Source: an uncultured Candidatus Peribacteria bacterium (GTDB lineage: Bacteria; Patescibacteriota; Gracilibacteria; UBA1369; LOWO2-01-FULL-3). Taken from it: 64,000 nt of DNA. Positions 29,794 to 37,629 of the stretch are shown here, piece after piece (within the stretch, counting starts at the first letter, position 1; every line of letters starts with the position of its first letter). The notes below the pieces were generated by a model. It was not told the DNA's origin. It did no database searches and saw nothing but the letters and a program-made list of their open reading frames with translations. The translations under genes and the position numbers were made by a program. Location of the stretch: the NCBI GenBank assembly GCA_964525485.1, contig CAZGHH010000001.1:12455-76454 (forward strand), read 5' to 3'.

Positions 29794-31170
29794 TTAAACT
29801 CTTTTCCAGATCGTTCCGTTTGGGCCGTCTTCCAGAACGATTCCTTTTCCTTTTAACAAATCTCTGATTTCATCTGATCTTTTAAAGTTTTTCGTAGCAC
29901 GAACCTCGTTTCTTTCTTTTATCAACTCCTCGATGTCAGAATCCAAAGCTTTTTCTTGCACGAAGATAATCCCGAAAACAGAATCGAAACGTTTAAGCAA
30001 TTCAATAACCTGGTCTTTCTTATACTCAGTTTCGAATCCAACATCTTTAATTAAATCAAAAACTACAGAAAGTGCGCCAGACGTATCGAAATCATTGTCC
30101 ATAAATTCTTCAAATCTTTTCGCGTAAAATTCAGCATCGAAATCTTTCTCTCCGTTACTGTTTTTTAAACTTCTCACGAAATCATGAATCCTCTGCAAGC
30201 CAGCCTTCGCCTGGTCAAGTAATTCGTCACTAAATTCGATAGGTGAACTGTAGTGCTTTTGCAAAATCATGTAGCGGATTACGCGACCATCGTATTTTTT
30301 TAAAATCTCTTTTAATGTAAAGAAATTACCGAGACTCTTACTCATCTTCTCTTTATTCACAGTGATGAATCCATTATGCATCCAGTATTTAGCAAAAGCT
30401 CCAATGCCAAACACAGACTCGCTCTGAGCAATCTCACATTCATGATGAGGAAACTGTAGATCAGCACCACCTCCGTGAATATCAAATTTTTCGCCAAGAA
30501 GTTTCCATGACATTACGGAACATTCCAAGTGCCAACCAGGACGACCGTCTCCCCAAGGAGAAGCCCAAAACGGCTCGCCATCTTTCTTGAATTTCCATAC
30601 ACAAAAGTCATAAGGATTTCTTTTCCCCGTATTTTCAGCAACTCTAGCGCCAATTTTCAAATCTTTCAATTTTTGTCCTGATAATTTTCCATATGAAGGA
30701 TCTCTTGTAATGTCAAAATAAACTCCGTCACCATCGATAACATACGTCACGCCGGCGCTCTCCATCTTCTGCAAAAACTCGATCATCGCCGGTATGTATT
30801 CAGTCGCTCTAGGAGTTGCATCCGGCGCCATTATCCCGAGCGCCTCATAATCTTCCTGGTAAGAAGGAATGATCTTATCAGCCAATTCCTCCACGCTAAT
30901 ATCTTCTTCATTCGCACGATTTATCATCTTGTCGTCGATATCCGTATAATTTGAAACAAACCGCACTTCGTATCCTTTATAAATCAAATACTTACGAACG
31001 ATATCGAAACAAACAGCGCTTCTGCCATGTCCCAAATGTCCGTGATCGTAAACAGTCGGTCCGCAAACATACATAGAAACTTTTTTCGATCCAGGTTCGG
31101 TTTCAGCGTCGACAGGAGAGAACTTCTCTTTTTTCCAAGTCAATGTATTTTTAATTTTCAAGTTCCCCAT
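29794..31170 (-). CDS. cysS: Cysteinyl-tRNA synthetase
   Basis: 458 aa. HIGH-type HLGHGRS, KMSKS (KMSKSLGN), conserved Cys/His zinc ligands (CGPTVYD, WHLEC, HHEC). Confidence 0.95.
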   Translation of the reverse strand: MGNLKIKNTLTWKKEKFSPVDAETEPGSKKVSMYVCGPTVYDHGHLGHGRSAVCFDIVRKYLIYKGYEVRFVSNYTDIDDKMINRANEEDISVEELADKIIPSYQEDYEALGIMAPDATPRATEYIPAMIEFLQKMESAGVTYVIDGDGVYFDITRDPSYGKLSGQKLKDLKIGARVAENTGKRNPYDFCVWKFKKDGEPFWASPWGDGRPGWHLECSVMSWKLLGEKFDIHGGGADLQFPHHECEIAQSESVFGIGAFAKYWMHNGFITVNKEKMSKSLGNFFTLKEILKKYDGRVIRYMILQKHYSSPIEFSDELLDQAKAGLQRIHDFVRSLKNSNGEKDFDAEFYAKRFEEFMDNDFDTSGALSVVFDLIKDVGFETEYKKDQVIELLKRFDSVFGIIFVQEKALDSDIEELIKERNEVRATKNFKRSDEIRDLLKGKGIVLEDGPNGTIWKRV

Positions 31171-31183
31171 TATTTAAAAAAAA

Positions 31184-31483
31184 TTATAAAAACGTAATCA
31201 ATTTAATCAATCCATAAACAAGAATGTTTATGATAAGCATAGCAGTAAAAGGTGACAGATCGAGCATGCCGATCCTATGAGGTAATTTTCTGGCAACACG
31301 CAAAATCGGCTCAGTAATATCATGTACAAAATAAGTGATTCTTCCGGGTTTTCTCATACCTCCAACATTAATCCAAGACAAAATAATCCTGGCAAAAATA
31401 GCATAAGACATGATATTGCCAAGAACTGTAATAAAATTAACAGCAAAAACTTTTATCTGTGTAATATCTATATTCATAGCCAA
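31184..31483 (-). CDS. YggT-family membrane protein
   Basis: 99 aa, 2 TM segments. ILSWI...ITEPILRVARKLPHRIGMLDLSP block typical of YggT/Ycf19. Confidence 0.8.
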   Translation of the reverse strand: MAMNIDITQIKVFAVNFITVLGNIMSYAIFARIILSWINVGGMRKPGRITYFVHDITEPILRVARKLPHRIGMLDLSPFTAMLIINILVYGLIKLITFL

Positions 31484-31512
31484 TTAAAATTCATTGGCCA
31501 GATTCTAGCATC

Positions 31513-33510
31513 TTATTTCTTTTTTGAAAATTGAGAAAATGCAATTCCGCCCAAACCGGCTACGGCAAACAGGAATGCAACTTCAGGTCCGCTTTCAGAG
31601 ACGTCTTTTGGTATCTCGGCCAAATGCTCTGCACCGGCTGTGCCTTCCAATACGTCGGGAGGTAAATATGTCGAAGACCCGGGAATGCCGGTGACAACAT
31701 TACTTACGTGTGAAGAAATTCCACCTTCATTATCGACGGCAACAACTGCAAAATAATAAGTTTTACCATTTATCAAATCTGGAATATACCAGTTTGTAGC
31801 GGCGGTCCAAGTATCCACAGCGTATCTCATATCATTTGGAGCGATACCATAAAATACTCTATAAAATTTAACAGGATTGCCTGTTTTTGGAGCATCCCAT
31901 TTTAAAGCAACTTTATGATCACCGGGATATGCGATTAAGTTAGCTACATCGCCAACCAATGGAGCTGAAGTCGCACCCGGGACATCAGATAGGCCTGGAG
32001 TACCTTGTACGCCAACAAGCAAAGGAGTTTCTTTTTCTTTTTTAGTTTGATTTCCCAAGTTATCGCTAAGCGTTACAACTGAAAGATATTGTCCGGCAGT
32101 CACGGGAGCTTTGAATTTCGCAGAATAATAACCGTTGCCGGAATCTTTCATTTCATAAGTGCCATCACCAACCTGTAAAAGGACTTTTAATAAGTTGGTC
32201 TCGGCATATACTCTTGCTTCAACTTCACCTGATGCCGCAACGCCTGCAGGTACATATTCAAGTTTTTCGAAAGTTGGAGGAGTCGTGTCTATTTTAAATT
32301 TAATTTTTGAAGAAGAAGCTACGATAGTTCCTCCATCATTAATAATAGCTACAAAGATTTCATGATCGCCATCAGACATGGCCGCAGTAACAAACATAAA
32401 ATTACCGGTCGAGTCAGCGGTGGCAGATCCTATCTCAGAATTATTATCATATATTTTTAATTTTGCTCCCGGAGTTGCTACTCCTGAAACAACCTGTGTT
32501 TTATTTGCAAAGATACCGGGAACAGGATTTGAAAGAGTTATAAGATCGCTCGCAGAACCTGAAGTGCCGGAAACGACTACAGTCAACGTCCCGAAAATTT
32601 GAATGTCAATTATATCACGTGCTTCTATTACATATGTACCGGGAGAATTAAAAGACAGTGCTAATGAAAAAGTATGAGCACCGGCATCTTGTATTCCAAA
32701 TGTATAGTCAGAAGGCAAATTCACAGAAGTAGCATCTCCTGACGTAACGGCAAAATGAACAGTTCCATCGTATTCCATAGCAATTTGCTCGGATTGATCC
32801 ATCGCCGACAAAGTAAATGAAATATTTTGACCAACTGAAACGGTTTGAGGCAAATCTTTGAAAGCCAAATGAGAAACCGGTCCTGCTGAATTTCCGACAG
32901 CATGGCCTATCACGGCGTTTTGACTATTCAAAACAGAAGCCGAATACGGAGAATAAGACCTTTGAGTCGCATAAGAATTCGAAGAGGTCGTATTAAAAAT
33001 TTCATCCGTAGAATTGAAATAAACAATCTTAGCTCTTGATGTTAAAACTTTATTTTTAGTCAAATCAAATATTGAATAGGTTGAAACGCCAGGTGTTTTT
33101 GAATTCACATTAAAGACGGCCACGCCGTTTTCGTCAGTCATTTTCGCCGACGGCATGATGTCCGAATCTCTACTGGAAATCAAAGTTAAAACGTCTCCAA
33201 ATATAGGTTTACCATTTGAATCTCTTAATATGATCTCAAGTTCTCCATCATCTTTGCCTATACGTACAACCTGCTCCGAAGGTGAAACCTCAGAGAAATC
33301 ATCCGAAACAACGCCACTAGAAACAGACAAAGTCGAGTTTGCAGAGGTTGAATTCGCGGAAACTGTTGTATTTACAGAAGCCGAAGCCGCGACCGTAGAA
33401 GTCGAAGGCTCAACGGCTTTCACAGATTCGAAATCGTAAGCAAAGGAAACCGTCAATAACGATAATATAAGTATCCAACCGGCGACCAAACTAAGTATTT
33501 TTGTTTTCAT
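31513..33510 (-). CDS. Large secreted surface protein (beta-rich Ig-like/FN3-like repeats) with C-terminal membrane anchor
   Basis: ATG 33510 (MKTKILSL...) gives a signal peptide ending SFA. The track ORF starts at 33543. Ser/Thr/Val-rich linker, repeated beta-rich modules, FN3-like segment (KVALKWDAPKTGNPVKFYRVFYG). C-terminal GPEVAFLFAVAGLGGIAFSQF + KKK. Confidence 0.5.
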   Translation of the reverse strand: MKTKILSLVAGWILILSLLTVSFAYDFESVKAVEPSTSTVAASASVNTTVSANSTSANSTLSVSSGVVSDDFSEVSPSEQVVRIGKDDGELEIILRDSNGKPIFGDVLTLISSRDSDIMPSAKMTDENGVAVFNVNSKTPGVSTYSIFDLTKNKVLTSRAKIVYFNSTDEIFNTTSSNSYATQRSYSPYSASVLNSQNAVIGHAVGNSAGPVSHLAFKDLPQTVSVGQNISFTLSAMDQSEQIAMEYDGTVHFAVTSGDATSVNLPSDYTFGIQDAGAHTFSLALSFNSPGTYVIEARDIIDIQIFGTLTVVVSGTSGSASDLITLSNPVPGIFANKTQVVSGVATPGAKLKIYDNNSEIGSATADSTGNFMFVTAAMSDGDHEIFVAIINDGGTIVASSSKIKFKIDTTPPTFEKLEYVPAGVAASGEVEARVYAETNLLKVLLQVGDGTYEMKDSGNGYYSAKFKAPVTAGQYLSVVTLSDNLGNQTKKEKETPLLVGVQGTPGLSDVPGATSAPLVGDVANLIAYPGDHKVALKWDAPKTGNPVKFYRVFYGIAPNDMRYAVDTWTAATNWYIPDLINGKTYYFAVVAVDNEGGISSHVSNVVTGIPGSSTYLPPDVLEGTAGAEHLAEIPKDVSESGPEVAFLFAVAGLGGIAFSQFSKKK

Positions 33511-33670
33511 ATTTATTTTTTGAATCAGTAAATGATACACCAAAAAGCTTTTTTCTTCAAGAATACCCCCCTAGATTCAGAAGATATGTCAAGTCTTAAT
33601 AAAAACGTCCCCAGAGTTGTAAAAACAGATGAATTCGTATAAACTCTACGGGACAATAAAGCTATTAATT

Positions 33671-35245
33671 ATGATTAAAAAAATATTTGTATTTTTTACG
33701 CTGTCTTTCATGTTATGTGCATCGCCGATGTTGAGCATGACTACAGTATTTGCTGACACAGAAAAAGTCGTAACGAACAACATTCAAAAGACATTACTGG
33801 AAGCGGTTATCAAAAGTGAAGACACGAATTCTGTCAAAGGAAACATGATATTCGACGCTTCCCAGAGTTACATGCCGGAAAATGAAAAAGAATATAAATT
33901 CGAATGGGACTTTGGAGATGGAAATAGAGACCAGGGAATCGAGACTCCTCATTCATATAATAAACCTGGAAGATATACAGTGTCGTTGCGTATTTACAAC
34001 GACAAAGAAGAATCTGTGACAAAAAAAGAAATTTTTATATACAACAAATCAATACTTGTACTTACAGATTCTCAAACAAACAAAGCACTCCTGGAAACAG
34101 TAAAGGCGTATGGCGAAGACAAAGGCGTATACATAAAAATTGTAGACAGTTTTGGAGCGAGCTCTGAATTTATATCGGAAGAAATCTTGTACAAAAAGCT
34201 GTCCGAATCACTTTCTCATCTTCAAAAATCATCGCAAGTTTTGACATGGACTAGAGAAAATTCCGGATTGAACGCTCTTTCTAGACTCGTAACCGAATCG
34301 CGATCAAAAGAGCCTATAAACCTTTCAAGTAAATCAATCATAGTCGTAACGAGCGATATAGAATCTTATTCAGGAAGAATAAAAAACCAGTTTTCACTAT
34401 TGAACCCAAAAAACATAGTTTTGGTCAACGAAGCCGGAGTATATCAAATTATAGATAATCTCACCTTCGAGGATTTAACTAAAAATTTAAAAGAAAAAGG
34501 GTATGAATACAAAATCATCACAGAAGCCAGTTTCAGACTAATGCCGTGGAACTTCTTGTCGTATTTTATATCCGTACTAATAGAAAAAGGGATTCCGGAC
34601 AATACGATTGCATTACTTTTACTGCTTCCGGTTATTGCGACGGTCATAACATTCATGAAGCAATTCGTTGGACTCACGACTATGGGGATATTCACTCCAA
34701 TGGTAATCACTCTCTCGTTTTTAGTAATAGGTGTTAACTTCGGACTATTGGTGCTTTTAATGATACTGACGGTAGGAACACTCGTGAGGCAACTATTAAA
34801 CAAAGCCAGACTTCTTTATATACCGAAAATGGCGATAGTTATAACATCGACAGCCATTATGCTGTTATTGATGCTTATTTTGAGCTTGTATTTGAATGTT
34901 TTTAACGCGACGTTCATATCATTGAGTATATTCCCGATGGTGATACTCAGTACTCTTGTGGAACGTTTTATCAGTATCAAAACCGAGCGCGGACTGAAAA
35001 CAGCAATAGTGCTGATGATTGAAACGATAATAGTATCAGTAGTTGCATATATTATAGTTGGGGGAAAAATGGATTTGGGAATAGTTGAATTTCAATTCGG
35101 ATGGATCAGGGATTTGATGTTAAACTTCCCGGAATTGGTATTTGCGCTAGTTATAGTTAATGTGCTGCTTGGTAGATGGACAGGTCTTAGAATGTTGGAA
35201 TTTATAAGATTCAAAGAAGTCATAAGACACATAGAAGAAGAATAA
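33671..35245 (+). CDS. Signal peptide + PKD domain + C-terminal 7-TM module (7TM type usually fused to inactive transglutaminases)
   Basis: ATG 33671 (MIKKIFVFFTLSF...) preferred over 33629. PKD signature FDASQS...YKFEWDFGDGN...HSYNKPGRYTVSLRI. C-terminal half has about 7 hydrophobic helices beginning LLLLPVIATVITFMKQFVGLTTMGIFTP. The protein ends ...RHIEEE. Confidence 0.6.
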   Translation: MIKKIFVFFTLSFMLCASPMLSMTTVFADTEKVVTNNIQKTLLEAVIKSEDTNSVKGNMIFDASQSYMPENEKEYKFEWDFGDGNRDQGIETPHSYNKPGRYTVSLRIYNDKEESVTKKEIFIYNKSILVLTDSQTNKALLETVKAYGEDKGVYIKIVDSFGASSEFISEEILYKKLSESLSHLQKSSQVLTWTRENSGLNALSRLVTESRSKEPINLSSKSIIVVTSDIESYSGRIKNQFSLLNPKNIVLVNEAGVYQIIDNLTFEDLTKNLKEKGYEYKIITEASFRLMPWNFLSYFISVLIEKGIPDNTIALLLLLPVIATVITFMKQFVGLTTMGIFTPMVITLSFLVIGVNFGLLVLLMILTVGTLVRQLLNKARLLYIPKMAIVITSTAIMLLLMLILSLYLNVFNATFISLSIFPMVILSTLVERFISIKTERGLKTAIVLMIETIIVSVVAYIIVGGKMDLGIVEFQFGWIRDLMLNFPELVFALVIVNVLLGRWTGLRMLEFIRFKEVIRHIEEE

Positions 35246-35254
35246 TAAAACAAT

Positions 35255-37627
35255 ATGAAACTTTTTAAGTCATACGGAATTTTAGGAATAAATGCGAGAA
35301 ATCTTCTTTATATTAAACCGCTAAATCCGGCAAAAGCTGTAAAATTAGCCGATGACAAAATTAAAACGAAAAAATTTCTTGAGACAAGGGGAATTCCTGT
35401 GCCCAAATTATTAAAAGTCATACAAAATCACGAAGAATTGGAGAAGTTAGACTTCAAGACATTACCAAATGCATTCGCATTAAAACCAAACAGTGGATTT
35501 GGAGGAGAAGGAATAATTCCGATCAAATCCAGAGAAGATAACGATTTTATATCGGTAAACGATAAGATCTATACAAAAGAAATGTTATACGATCAGATAT
35601 TGGATATTCTCGACGGAAGATTTTCTATATCAAATATATCTGACATAGCTTTTTTTGAACAATTGATAATTCCCGACAAATCATTGGGGAAGTATTCATA
35701 TTCAGGATTACCGGACATCCGTATAATTGTTTACAACATGGTTCCGGTGATGGCGATGCTAAGACTCCCGACAAAAGAATCAAATGGCAAGGCAAATTTG
35801 CATCAAGGGGCGTGCGGAGTCGGGCTGGACCTAGCTTCCGGGAAGGCAACATACATAGTCAAAAGTAATAAAATTATTGATGAAATAGAAGGTATCGGGA
35901 AGTTAGATGACTTAAAAGTGCCATTCTGGGATGAGATTTTATTGGCTGCATCAAAAATTCAGATGGCTACAAATCTAGGATATTTGGCGGTAGACATGGC
36001 TATAGATAAAAATTCAGGACCTTTGCTCTTGGAAATCAATGCTAGAGCAGGGCTAGGAGTTCAAAATGCGAACTTGGCACCATTAAGAAAAAGATTGGAA
36101 AGAATAGAAGGCGTGAAAGTCGGCAAGCCGGAAAAAGGAGTTCAGATAGCAAAAGACATGTTCGGTGCGGGATTTGAGAAAAAAGAACAAATCACGGTAA
36201 ATAAGAAAATAATCGGAAAAGAAGAAGACGTTGAAATTAACATAAAAAACGAATCTCATGTACTCAAAGCGATAATAGATCCATCTCACGAACGAAGTAC
36301 TTTGGATATCAAAATCGCTGAAAAATTAAACCTTACGAAATCTACGGAATATGACGACGAAAAATCCACATTAAAATTAAAATTCACACTAAAAGACAAG
36401 AAAATACAAACAGTCGTGGACGTAGAGAAAATTCAAAACGAAGATTTCAAAATGATAATAGGTGAAAGAGACCTAGAAGGTTTTTTGCTCGATATCAAGG
36501 CGAAATCAAGCACAACAAAAAAACATCAAAAAGCAGTAATTAAAAAAAGAAAGAAAAACCATTTTGAAATTGACGAAGAAATCACTGGAATAGATAACCA
36601 AATTAAATTACTTTTCCATTTGCGTCCGGTAAATCTAGAAGAAGAGAGACAAAAGTTTTTTAATAATTACACTTACAACCCGCAATTTATATATCCGGAA
36701 CTTAGGTTCAATTCAGACACTTTGAAGCAAAGATTGGCATTGATAGACAACTACGGAGGTATACTTGGAGAAATATTTGAAGCAAAAAAACAAGAAATAA
36801 TAAAAAAGATAAATTTACTGGATCACATAGGGGAAGAGTCATTCACTCAAAAATCAATTGAACTTTTTGGAAGCCCGGATGAGAACCTTATCAATGAATG
36901 CGAAAAATTATTAATAGAAAGCGACAAAAGCTACAAAAAAGATGCAGATAAAATAATGATATCCTCCGACGATGCAGCAAAAGCATTCAAAAAAGTATTC
37001 GAAGAATATGGACTCAAAAATTGGAACGTGAAAATCAAAGATGAAATGGTTACAGACTGTGTGGCGGGGAAAAACAACATGCTTTTCGTCAGAAAAAAAG
37101 CAACTTTCAGCGAGCATAAAATACAAAAGTTAATAATCCACGAGATCGAAACGCACATATTGACAGCTGAAAACGGAAAAAATCAACCTTTTGAAATATT
37201 TAATAGGGGACTGGCAAATTACTTGGAAACGCAAGAAGGCCTGGCTGTTTACAACGTCAACGAACAACTCGACAAAAATATCTCAAGAAGTTATAAGGCA
37301 TTGGCGTTGATTATAGCTATAGCAACGGCTCATCAAGCATCTTTTAATCAAGTTTTTGAGAAGATTTTATCGTTTGGGCTTTCAATAGAAGATTCATTTA
37401 GAATAACCTTGAAAGTTAAAAGAGGCCTAACGGATACATCATCAAAAGGTGCGTTCACAAAGGATATGATGTACTACAGTGGATATAAACAAATAAAAGA
37501 ATTTATAAAAAACGGAGGTGAAATGAGAGATTTATATATAGGAAAATTCAATTTAAAAGATTTGGATTTAATAAAAAAACTAGAAGGACTCACGGACCCG
37601 AAAATCTTACCAAAGTGGCTTAGATGA
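35255..37627 (+). CDS. Fusion protein: RimK-related ATP-grasp (alpha-L-glutamate-ligase-like) + DUF1704/QEGLA-motif (MATCAP-family) zinc carboxypeptidase-like domain
   Basis: 790 aa. N-terminal GILGINARNLLYIKPLNP, KPNSGFGGEGI, LLLEINARAGLG (ATP-grasp). C-terminal HEIETH at 37139..37156 and ETQEGLA at 37232..37246 (QEGLA-motif family). Starts 9 nt after the PKD-7TM gene. Confidence 0.7.
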   Translation: MKLFKSYGILGINARNLLYIKPLNPAKAVKLADDKIKTKKFLETRGIPVPKLLKVIQNHEELEKLDFKTLPNAFALKPNSGFGGEGIIPIKSREDNDFISVNDKIYTKEMLYDQILDILDGRFSISNISDIAFFEQLIIPDKSLGKYSYSGLPDIRIIVYNMVPVMAMLRLPTKESNGKANLHQGACGVGLDLASGKATYIVKSNKIIDEIEGIGKLDDLKVPFWDEILLAASKIQMATNLGYLAVDMAIDKNSGPLLLEINARAGLGVQNANLAPLRKRLERIEGVKVGKPEKGVQIAKDMFGAGFEKKEQITVNKKIIGKEEDVEINIKNESHVLKAIIDPSHERSTLDIKIAEKLNLTKSTEYDDEKSTLKLKFTLKDKKIQTVVDVEKIQNEDFKMIIGERDLEGFLLDIKAKSSTTKKHQKAVIKKRKKNHFEIDEEITGIDNQIKLLFHLRPVNLEEERQKFFNNYTYNPQFIYPELRFNSDTLKQRLALIDNYGGILGEIFEAKKQEIIKKINLLDHIGEESFTQKSIELFGSPDENLINECEKLLIESDKSYKKDADKIMISSDDAAKAFKKVFEEYGLKNWNVKIKDEMVTDCVAGKNNMLFVRKKATFSEHKIQKLIIHEIETHILTAENGKNQPFEIFNRGLANYLETQEGLAVYNVNEQLDKNISRSYKALALIIAIATAHQASFNQVFEKILSFGLSIEDSFRITLKVKRGLTDTSSKGAFTKDMMYYSGYKQIKEFIKNGGEMRDLYIGKFNLKDLDLIKKLEGLTDPKILPKWLR

Positions 37628-37629
37628 AG

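Follow-up and report, generated by a model that had tools for sequence, protein, structure and literature searches.

Within a 64,000-nucleotide window of an uncultured Candidatus Peribacteria bacterium (contig CAZGHH010000001.1, positions 12,455 to 76,454, forward strand), two adjacent genes, here called gene 1 and gene 2, encode a seven-transmembrane (7TM) protein that ends in a run of glutamates and a 790-amino acid enzyme that unites an ATP-grasp ligase domain, a retropepsin-like domain, and a zinc carboxypeptidase domain of the MATCAP family in one chain. The combination likely reflects a cycle in which a ligase works against a carboxypeptidase. More specifically, we favor, tentatively and with a probability of roughly 0.45, a membrane-docked module that would write residues onto the -EE tail of its own 7TM partner and erase them again. 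The module is characteristic of the Peribacteria (Patescibacteria). No paper found in our literature search described the ATP-grasp–retropepsin–MATCAP architecture, the PKD-type partner, or the -EE tail; searching for MATCAP together with bacterial and ATP-grasp returned nothing, and DUF1704 and QEGLA only incidental mentions. Existing database labels for such proteins read "alpha-L-glutamate ligase-like / TIGR02421" or "tyrosine/phenylalanine carboxypeptidase domain-containing".

A ligase, a retropepsin-like domain, and a carboxypeptidase in one chain

The C-terminal part of the gene 2 product belongs to the MATCAP family (QEGLA, DUF1704). The Pfam model MATCAP (PF08014) covers residues 468–789 (E 1.7e-58, 198.8 bits against a cut-off of 27), and TIGR02421 (QEGLA) matches with E 9.1e-62, its 209.4 bits remaining under the equivalog cut-off of 338.65. 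We modeled the chain with AlphaFold2 (AF2) at a mean predicted local distance difference test score (pLDDT) of 79, which exceeds 90 over most of the MATCAP domain. When this model was compared with the PDB by Foldseek, MATCAP came first (7z5g; E 1.4e-13, TM score on the target (TMt) 0.67, 346 columns). Alignment with the human MATCAP sequences (7z5g/7z6s) pairs H629-E630-x3-H634 with HEIGTH and Q660-E661-G-L-A with EEGLA; the 7z6s chain reads HQIGTH at the zinc motif, and E281 is the catalytic glutamate of the human enzyme (PMC10499314). A preliminary description of the window had rightly likened these residues to the catalytic residues of MATCAP but had written the metal motif as HExxH, whereas its actual pattern is HExxxH (HEIETH).

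To follow these residues through the family, we scanned species-representative genomes, which yielded at least 572 relatives; the 80 loci referred to below are the best 80, at 39–82% identity to gene 2, the closest (L009) being 82% identical. H629, E630, H634, E661, G662, and A664 are kept in all 80. The predicted MATCAP domain is presumed to act as a C-terminal carboxypeptidase.

The N-terminal part of gene 2 is an ATP-grasp ligase domain most similar to RloC and RimK. ATPgrasp_ST (PF14397) covers residues 15–285 (E 1.8e-63, 214.8 bits against a cut-off of 31.4), and TIGR02291 scores 258.4 bits (E 7.6e-77), under its cut-off of 314.2. With scores under the equivalog cut-offs of both TIGR02291 and TIGR02421, gene 2 is therefore a divergent member of both families. 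The RimK model TIGR00768 reaches 48.9 against a cut-off of 143.4 and matches residues 16–95 alone, and Pfam gave no match to PF08443 or Rimk_N. In the PDB fold search, RimK, ArgX, and LysX followed MATCAP at E ∼1e-7, all ahead of Ddl. TTL, whose chemistry the preliminary description had drawn on as an analogue, is not closely related to this ligase: it is not among the top 50 PDB matches, nor does Pfam match PF03133 to gene 2; two distant fusion members show weak TTL matches, and a viral structure library returned viral TTL-like proteins at E 4e-5 or weaker. K77 of the ATP-grasp domain is kept in 78 of the 80 loci and E260, N262, and R264 in all of them. Because the residues of both ligase and peptidase are kept in 78–80 of the 80 loci, we conclude that both predicted activities are under purifying selection.

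The first 33 residues of gene 2 (35255..35353) carry the motif GILGINARNLLYIxPxN, which is nearly invariant across the family and common to RloC-type ligases. This region is modeled at a pLDDT below 35 and may adopt its fold only in contact with the 7TM partner or a substrate.

Between ligase and peptidase lies a third domain. The preliminary description had taken gene 2 for a two-part enzyme; its ligase and MATCAP halves stand, and this retropepsin-like domain (residues 317–412) had been missed. The family alignment reveals the signature AKIDTGxERSxID...IIGxRDL. Of 30 members, 20 are matched by Pfam gag-asp_proteas (E 8e-5 at best) and 17 by Asp_protease_2 (E 3.2e-5 at best); for the window copy, both retropepsin models give only weak matches (E 0.047 and 0.13). 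A search of the viral structure library aligned stretches of ∼100–118 columns with an "acid protease" of phage origin (E 6.6e-7, TMt 0.68) and with proteins of the "ATP-dependent zinc protease", DDI1, and retropepsin-like types. The PDB fold search did not isolate the domain, MATCAP and ATP-grasp matches filling the list. Membership in the RimB/RloA family specifically is suggestive: the family model Zn_protease matches the distant fusion P0343 (E 1.6e-4), and a specific match to PF05618 occurs in distant members only. We claim the retropepsin fold alone, because the domain profile did not align significantly with two RloA-like sequences (hhalign, probability 1%) and a profile search of the PDB returned nothing beyond weak DDI1 matches (E 0.24).

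The catalytic triplet of this domain reads D342-P-S in the window protein, which is therefore probably noncatalytic here, and N-P-S in the closest relative. An aspartate is found at the catalytic position in 31/80 loci and D-[TS]-G in ∼5/80; the structural G-x-R-D motif is kept in 75–79/80. From these sequences and the models, we conclude that the middle domain has a retropepsin fold and is noncatalytic in most members. The basic linker that follows it (residues 412–440) was considered as a binder of acidic tails and dropped, since its basic character is not kept throughout the family.

The fusion itself is genuine, as the preliminary description had supposed. Gene 2 is a full-length fusion in 80/80 loci, and at least 120 protein clusters from JGI, ENA, NCBI, and Logan assemblies (775–813 amino acids, 99–100% coverage) contain the same two Pfam domains. 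Among the 150 best of the 2,706 MATCAP family representatives at 50% clustering, ∼32 are 747–837 amino acids long with a C-terminal MATCAP domain, down to 32% identity; ATP-grasp was found in all ten of those checked by Pfam, and the order ATPgrasp_ST-then-MATCAP in nine (one being an N-terminally truncated fragment). The full-length fusions from independent projects exclude an assembly chimera or frameshift artefact that joined two genes into the 790-residue chain. A split form with overlapping genes in another lineage (L089) could be taken to favor such an artefact, to which we nonetheless attach a vanishingly small probability.

In that split operon, a PKD-7TM gene is followed by a gene for ATP-grasp plus retropepsin with an intact D-T-G-A and then by a MATCAP gene, which suggests that the fusion gene arose by the joining of adjacent genes. 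MATCAP genes pair repeatedly with ATP-grasp genes. Besides L089, at least three further arrangements are seen: in L091, where ATP-grasp plus retropepsin (again with intact DTGA) is followed by MATCAP and an ATP-grasp_3 ligase; in P0360, an 891-residue fusion of MATCAP with ATP-grasp_3; and in L005 (6001..8964), where genes for a glutathione-synthetase-like/RimK-like ATP-grasp protein and an N-formylglutamate amidohydrolase (FGase) come after a stand-alone MATCAP gene. To judge from their domains, systems of the L091 and P0360 type would have two ligases. Many other stand-alone MATCAP genes have no ligase neighbor.

The 7TM partner and its Glu-Glu tail

Gene 1 precedes gene 2 on the same (+) strand, separated from it by the 9-nt spacer TAAAACAAT. 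The preliminary description had given the same arrangement, and its four domain assignments (PKD, 7TM, ATP-grasp, and MATCAP) are matched by Pfam and NCBIfam models, with the ATP-grasp motifs, HEIETH, and QEGLA at the positions that it had listed (Table 1). It started gene 1 at 33671, an internal Met15 of the open reading frame (ORF). The true start is probably there, since the product of cluster P0121, 98% identical to that of gene 1 and beginning at this position, is 524 amino acids long.

The N-terminal stretch of the gene 1 product, MIKKIF...VFA, resembles a signal peptide. It is followed by a PKD domain (PKD_4 at residues 66–131, E 1.1e-12), modeled at a pLDDT above 90 and similar to the PKD domain of ColG in Foldseek (E 4.4e-7, TMt 0.87, root-mean-square deviation 2.0). 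The subsequent α/β domain gave no Pfam match, no convincing structural match, and no structural match to a transglutaminase (Pfam, Foldseek). It occupies the position of the inactive transglutaminase in RloB, and the corresponding model PF14400 does not match gene 1 (152.6 bits for Legionella RloB as control). The earlier view that a PKD domain had taken the place of the transglutaminase is thus right in that no transglutaminase domain exists, but an α/β domain follows the PKD domain, and the exchange is no simple replacement.

The membrane part is matched by 7TM_transglut (PF14402) at residues 326–531 (E 2.8e-31, 109.3 bits against a cut-off of 25). Six to seven hydrophobic segments lie in residues 325–514, and the transmembrane helices contain the conserved polar residues Q345, T350, T351, and E445. 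The NCBIfam RloB model (NF052267) matches the C-terminal part of gene 1 only (E 2e-20, 73 bits against a cut-off of 900). The AF2 model (pLDDT 83.6) consists of an N-terminal hydrophobic helix, the PKD domain, the α/β domain, a seven-helix bundle, and a long continuation of the last helix, and at least 120 clusters of gene 1 homologues from the protein search have the same architecture. With the ectodomain outside and seven helices to follow, the C terminus of gene 1 comes to lie in the cytoplasm. Inspection of the gene 2 sequence revealed no transmembrane segment.

Halobacterium sp. DL1 carries on its plasmid CP007061.1 (L008, 5164..6918) an unannotated archaeal ORF of 584 amino acids in which 7TM_transglut is followed by ATPgrasp_ST in a single chain. 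This arrangement confirms the cytoplasmic C terminus and also argues that the 7TM and ATP-grasp proteins work in contact.

In 69/80 loci, the fusion gene is immediately preceded by a 7TM gene of the same orientation, often with gaps of −4 to +19 nt; four of the remaining 11 loci are on truncated contigs. Three loci that lack an upstream 7TM gene have other genes near the fusion gene: a true RimK (Rimk_N + RimK by Pfam) just downstream of it in L059 (7603..8529), in L070 an ORF in a similar position that weakly matches the hidden Markov model of the fusion, and a similarly placed ORF of 303 residues in L088. In one Peregrinibacteria genome (L032, 3304..4989), a 561-residue ORF without Pfam match is inserted between the 7TM and fusion genes.

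The C-terminal end of gene 1 reads ...RFKEVIRHIEEE, its last 25 residues finishing in ...GLRMLEFIRFKEVIRHIEEE, and R527, F528, E530, E536, and E537 are invariant in the tail helix. All 42 aligned gene 1 homologues finish in ...RFREVLRHIEE, with two to four terminal glutamates. Two to four glutamates also end 63 of the 69 upstream 7TM proteins (-EE in 42, -EEE in 19, and -EEEE in 2), leaving 4 tails with a single glutamate and 2 without any. The residues before the glutamate run are variable (HLQ, RHI, KHA, RYT, and others). As a background, at least two terminal glutamates were found in 7/487 other ORFs of 200 or more amino acids from the same loci; of the 82 ORFs in the 64-kb window, only gene 1 ends in EE.

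As a control, we analyzed 80 metagenomic loci of unfused RloC-type ligases. An RloB-like gene is found upstream of the ligase gene in 71/80 and an RloA-like protease gene in 52/80, whereas a MATCAP gene is found in 0/80. None of the 71 RloB-like proteins carries the -EE tail, a typical ending being ...RFKAFLKD, and RloB of the Legionella and Aeromonas rloABC loci likewise ends without it. We therefore rejected the tail as a general feature of RloB. Strict coupling of the tail to the fusion or to MATCAP was rejected as well, in view of the exceptions L052, L085, and L089. The link between 7TM modules and ATP-grasp enzymes, cited in the preliminary description from comparative genomics, recurs in the rloABC loci, and coupling of ligase and 7TM protein is supported both by the Halobacterium single chain and by the adjacency of the two genes in the 71/80 rloC loci.

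Table 1. Coordinates of gene 1, gene 2, and their features in the window
Feature	Position	Strand	Description or basis
Gene 1 (ORF)	33629..35245	+	538 amino acids; secreted-ectodomain 7TM membrane protein, RloB-related
Probable signal peptide MIKKIFVFFTLSFMLCASPMLSMTTVFA	33671..33754	+	Hydrophobic segment, KK n-region, VFA site; read from sequence
PKD domain, residues 57–138	33797..34042	+	Pfam PKD_4, AF2, Foldseek
α/β (Rossmann-like) ectodomain, residues 140–300 (∼160 residues)	34046..34528	+	AF2, alternating strand/helix, pLDDT ∼84–95
7TM bundle (7TM_transglut)	34598..35188	+	Pfam PF14402
Cytoplasmic C-terminal helix ...RMLEFIRFKEVIRHIEEE	35189..35242	+	Conserved; terminal Glu-Glu-Glu at 35234..35242
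Gene 2	35255..37627	+	790 amino acids; cytoplasmic three-domain enzyme: ATP-grasp, retropepsin-like, MATCAP
RloC/RimK-like ATP-grasp ligase domain, residues 1–290	35255..36124	+	Pfam, NCBIfam, Foldseek
ATP-grasp motif GILGINARNLLYI	35276..35314	+	Sequence
ATP-grasp motif KPNSGFGGEGI	35483..35515	+	Sequence
ATP-grasp motif LLLEINARAGLG	36023..36058	+	Sequence
Retropepsin-like domain, residues 317–412	36203..36490	+	AF2 β domain, pLDDT 85–90
MATCAP/QEGLA (DUF1704) zinc carboxypeptidase domain, residues 436–790	36560..37624	+	Pfam, alignment, Foldseek
HEIETH	37139..37156	+	Metal motif, HExxxH pattern
ETQEGLA	37226..37246	+	QEGLA at 37232..37246

A proposed write-and-erase cycle and its relation to known systems

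From these features, we infer the chemistry and physiology of the module as follows. Gene 1, an RloB-type 7TM protein, would hold its PKD and α/β domains outside the cell and a helix ending in Glu-Glu(-Glu) in the cytoplasm. The RloC/RimK-like ATP-grasp domain would add amino acids, most likely α-linked L-Glu, to this acidic C terminus, and the degenerate retropepsin-like domain would keep a RimB-like role in binding oligo-Glu and stimulating the ligase. The MATCAP-type zinc carboxypeptidase would take off the added residues singly, so that tail length could reversibly mark a membrane protein that senses or transduces signals and, like the Rlo system, acts in envelope or osmotic homeostasis. 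Glutamate is the likeliest residue to be added, by analogy with RimK; a TTL-like addition of a single residue onto -EE is an alternative.

Several points weigh against this proposal. In seven loci, the fusion gene has no 7TM gene upstream. In L052 and L085 (both fused) and L089 (split), the enzymes are intact and the tails of the 7TM proteins read FKQN, FKK, and KTRK; the partners in L052 and L085 are short 7TM-only proteins. The tail can therefore be neither the universal nor the sole substrate. Moreover, the contrast of 63/69 versus 0/71 is not phylogenetically independent, because -EE tails occur in a single clade only. The geometry between the domains of the gene 2 model is unreliable (predicted TM score 0.49), and the added amino acid could be other than glutamate. 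No TIGR02291 protein and no bacterial QEGLA protein is known to have been characterized biochemically.

The substrate might instead be another protein, either ribosomal S6, as for RimK, or one with an acidic tail of its own. The 7TM protein would then recruit or regulate the enzyme, with -EE as a pseudo-substrate or docking motif. The known substrate of RimK is indeed RpsF, some Peribacteria fusion genes stand without a 7TM gene and beside a true RimK, the enzymes are intact where the tail is non-acidic, and -EE is what a MATCAP-type reaction would leave of -EEY. Yet no other of the 82 window ORFs ends in EE, and a run of two, three, or four glutamates after variable residues resembles an acceptor or primer, such as the acidic -EE end of Escherichia coli S6 to which RimK adds residues, more than a fixed docking motif. 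On balance, we consider another substrate unlikely, if still a serious contender.

The write-and-erase cycle, with the 7TM -EE tail as candidate acceptor, fits the experimentally shown RimK/RimB pair, in which the retropepsin-like RimB removes glutamate and stimulates RimK; a hybrid RimB–RimK chain is also known (PMC11957791). The preliminary description had treated the function of the family as unknown, which overlooked such hybrids (RimBK) and the published genetics of RloABC (PMC12239564); the logic of ligase and protease is already known from Rim and Rlo. In common with the Rim systems, the window pair would combine an ATP-grasp Glu ligase with a partner of the retropepsin-like kind to which oligo-Glu tails bind (PMC11957791, PMC7343187), and it shares with them the hybrid ligase–protease chain and an acceptor, for RimK, with an acidic C terminus. 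The window ligase differs from RimK in belonging to the ATPgrasp_ST/TIGR02291 branch, and the order of ligase then retropepsin is the reverse of that in RimBK. Further differences are the usually degenerate retropepsin site, the extra MATCAP domain, and the membrane partner.

The similarity to RloABC of Pseudomonas aeruginosa lies in the gene arrangement, with a 7TM_transglut protein encoded directly upstream of a TIGR02291/ATPgrasp_ST ligase (RloB-RloC), in a retropepsin-type module that is part of both systems, and in a common cytoplasmic ...LxExxRF helix. In contrast to RloB with its inactive transglutaminase, the window protein has an ectodomain of PKD and α/β domains. No gene for a separate secreted protease lies beside the window pair, whose retropepsin-like domain is internal, cytoplasmic, and, across the family, mostly degenerate. 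MATCAP has been added in the window and is absent from all 80 rloC loci, just as the -EE tail has no counterpart among the 71 RloB-like proteins of Rlo-type loci.

In P. aeruginosa, deletion of rloB or rloC rescues mutants without the secreted RloA proteases, which implies a product of RloBC that has to be trimmed by RloA (PMC12239564). This rescue suggests that the RloBC product is trimmed outside the cytoplasm and bears on a different explanation of the window pair, in which the ATP-grasp domain would make free poly-α-glutamate or a short peptide, the 7TM protein would export or anchor it, the peptidase domains would set its length, and -EE would be a primer or docking element. Consistent with such export, RimK makes free poly-Glu and RimB stimulates it, the 7TM helices contain the conserved polar residues listed above, and enzymes remain intact in systems without -EE tails. 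However, the window peptidase domains are all cytoplasmic and fused to the ligase, so that the product would be broken down before it could be exported; nothing shows transport by 7TM_transglut proteins; and the stop codon directly after the glutamate run in the -EE clade is left unexplained. Export of a free product is accordingly improbable in our estimate.

With the eukaryotic enzymes MATCAP1/2 (TMCP1/2), the C-terminal domain of gene 2 shares the peptidase family, the fold, the HExxxH motif, and the third ligand in (E/Q)EGLA. MATCAP/TMCP enzymes trim tyrosine and glutamate off acidic tubulin tails (PMC10499314). The tubulin tail cycle of MATCAP and TTL/TTLL resembles the cycle proposed here in setting an ATP-grasp ligase against a carboxypeptidase on an acidic -EE tail. 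It differs in that the window ligase is RimK/RloC-like, not TTL-like, that both predicted activities reside in one chain, and that the presumed target is the tail of a membrane protein, not tubulin. A bolder form of the write-and-erase cycle would be a bacterial "tail code", in which signals from the ectodomain set the length of a 7TM -EE tail that is reversibly extended, by polyglutamylation or TTL-like addition, and trimmed by one docked writer-eraser. Such a code would be a prokaryotic counterpart of what MATCAP does in the tubulin cycle, and possibly its evolutionary source; we regard it as speculative and doubtful.

Stand-alone bacterial QEGLA proteins (TIGR02421) belong to the same peptidase family and are recurrently paired with ATP-grasp genes, as in L005, but they are unfused, have no 7TM partner, and go with another ATP-grasp subfamily. 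Low salinity induces the QEGLA gene RS17025 of Photobacterium damselae 27-fold; the GshB-annotated RS17020 (an adjacent locus tag) and RimK, at 52-fold, are listed with it in one table of induced genes (PMC10308900).

Genome neighborhood and biological meaning

A scan for intrinsic terminators found none on the + strand, whether inside gene 1 or gene 2 or in the spacer, and one weak terminator-like site on the minus strand inside gene 1. Promoter-like matches are fewer than in shuffles. We infer that the two genes are co-transcribed.

The pair is embedded in a block with the order cysS, yggT, Ig-domain surface protein, gene pair, queA, SpoIIE phosphatase, STAS, MFS/HEAT protein, MurJ, and C39-like peptidase. 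This block (29794..44961) is syntenic with Peregrinibacteria contigs at only 58–61% protein identity, and gene order in this lineage is unusually stable. As the synteny is conserved lineage-wide, the neighborhood beyond the pair says little on its function. The surface protein (31513..33543, minus strand) is a chain of 676 residues that contains Big_13, Big_1, and fn3 domains, with a signal-like segment at its N terminus and a hydrophobic anchor at its C terminus; its gene is divergent from gene 1 and keeps the same position in L001. The MFS/HEAT protein (40105..42501, minus strand) is a 798-residue chain in which an MFS-like membrane domain is joined to HEAT repeats, and it adjoins the SpoIIE phosphatase/STAS partner-switching pair. 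The 80 loci are titled as metagenome-assembled genomes of Peribacteria, Peregrinibacteria, Gracilibacteria, or Patescibacteria, apart from a few untitled "bacterium" genomes and one "Altimarinota" genome.

The neighbors also bear on an editing of envelope precursors, in which peptidoglycan stem peptides or a surface glycopolymer would be the substrate of ligase and carboxypeptidase. A Mur ligase, MurJ, and the large Ig-domain surface protein are encoded nearby, the Pfam name of the ligase domain is "sugar-transfer associated ATP-grasp", and Rlo mutants have cell-shape and ampicillin phenotypes (PMC12239564). These neighbors are, however, part of a lineage-wide housekeeping synteny block, and the split homologue L089 lies in another context, dnaA-dnaN-ruvC. 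The closest structures are the protein- or peptide-modifying RimK, ArgX/LysX, and MATCAP, ahead of Ddl, and we deem precursor editing very improbable.

The MATCAP family, which has numerous bacterial members, was recognised as a family of tubulin carboxypeptidases only in 2022–23. A bacterial MATCAP domain in one chain with an opposing ligase, encoded beside a candidate substrate, turns the ancestral function of the family into a testable hypothesis. The module extends Rlo/Rim-type systems into the Patescibacteria, and its domain fusions and -EE tail point to a substrate for the ligase. Although the organism is uncultured, a test with recombinant enzyme and peptide is feasible and would cover both the function of a bacterial MATCAP and the substrate of an Rlo-type ligase.

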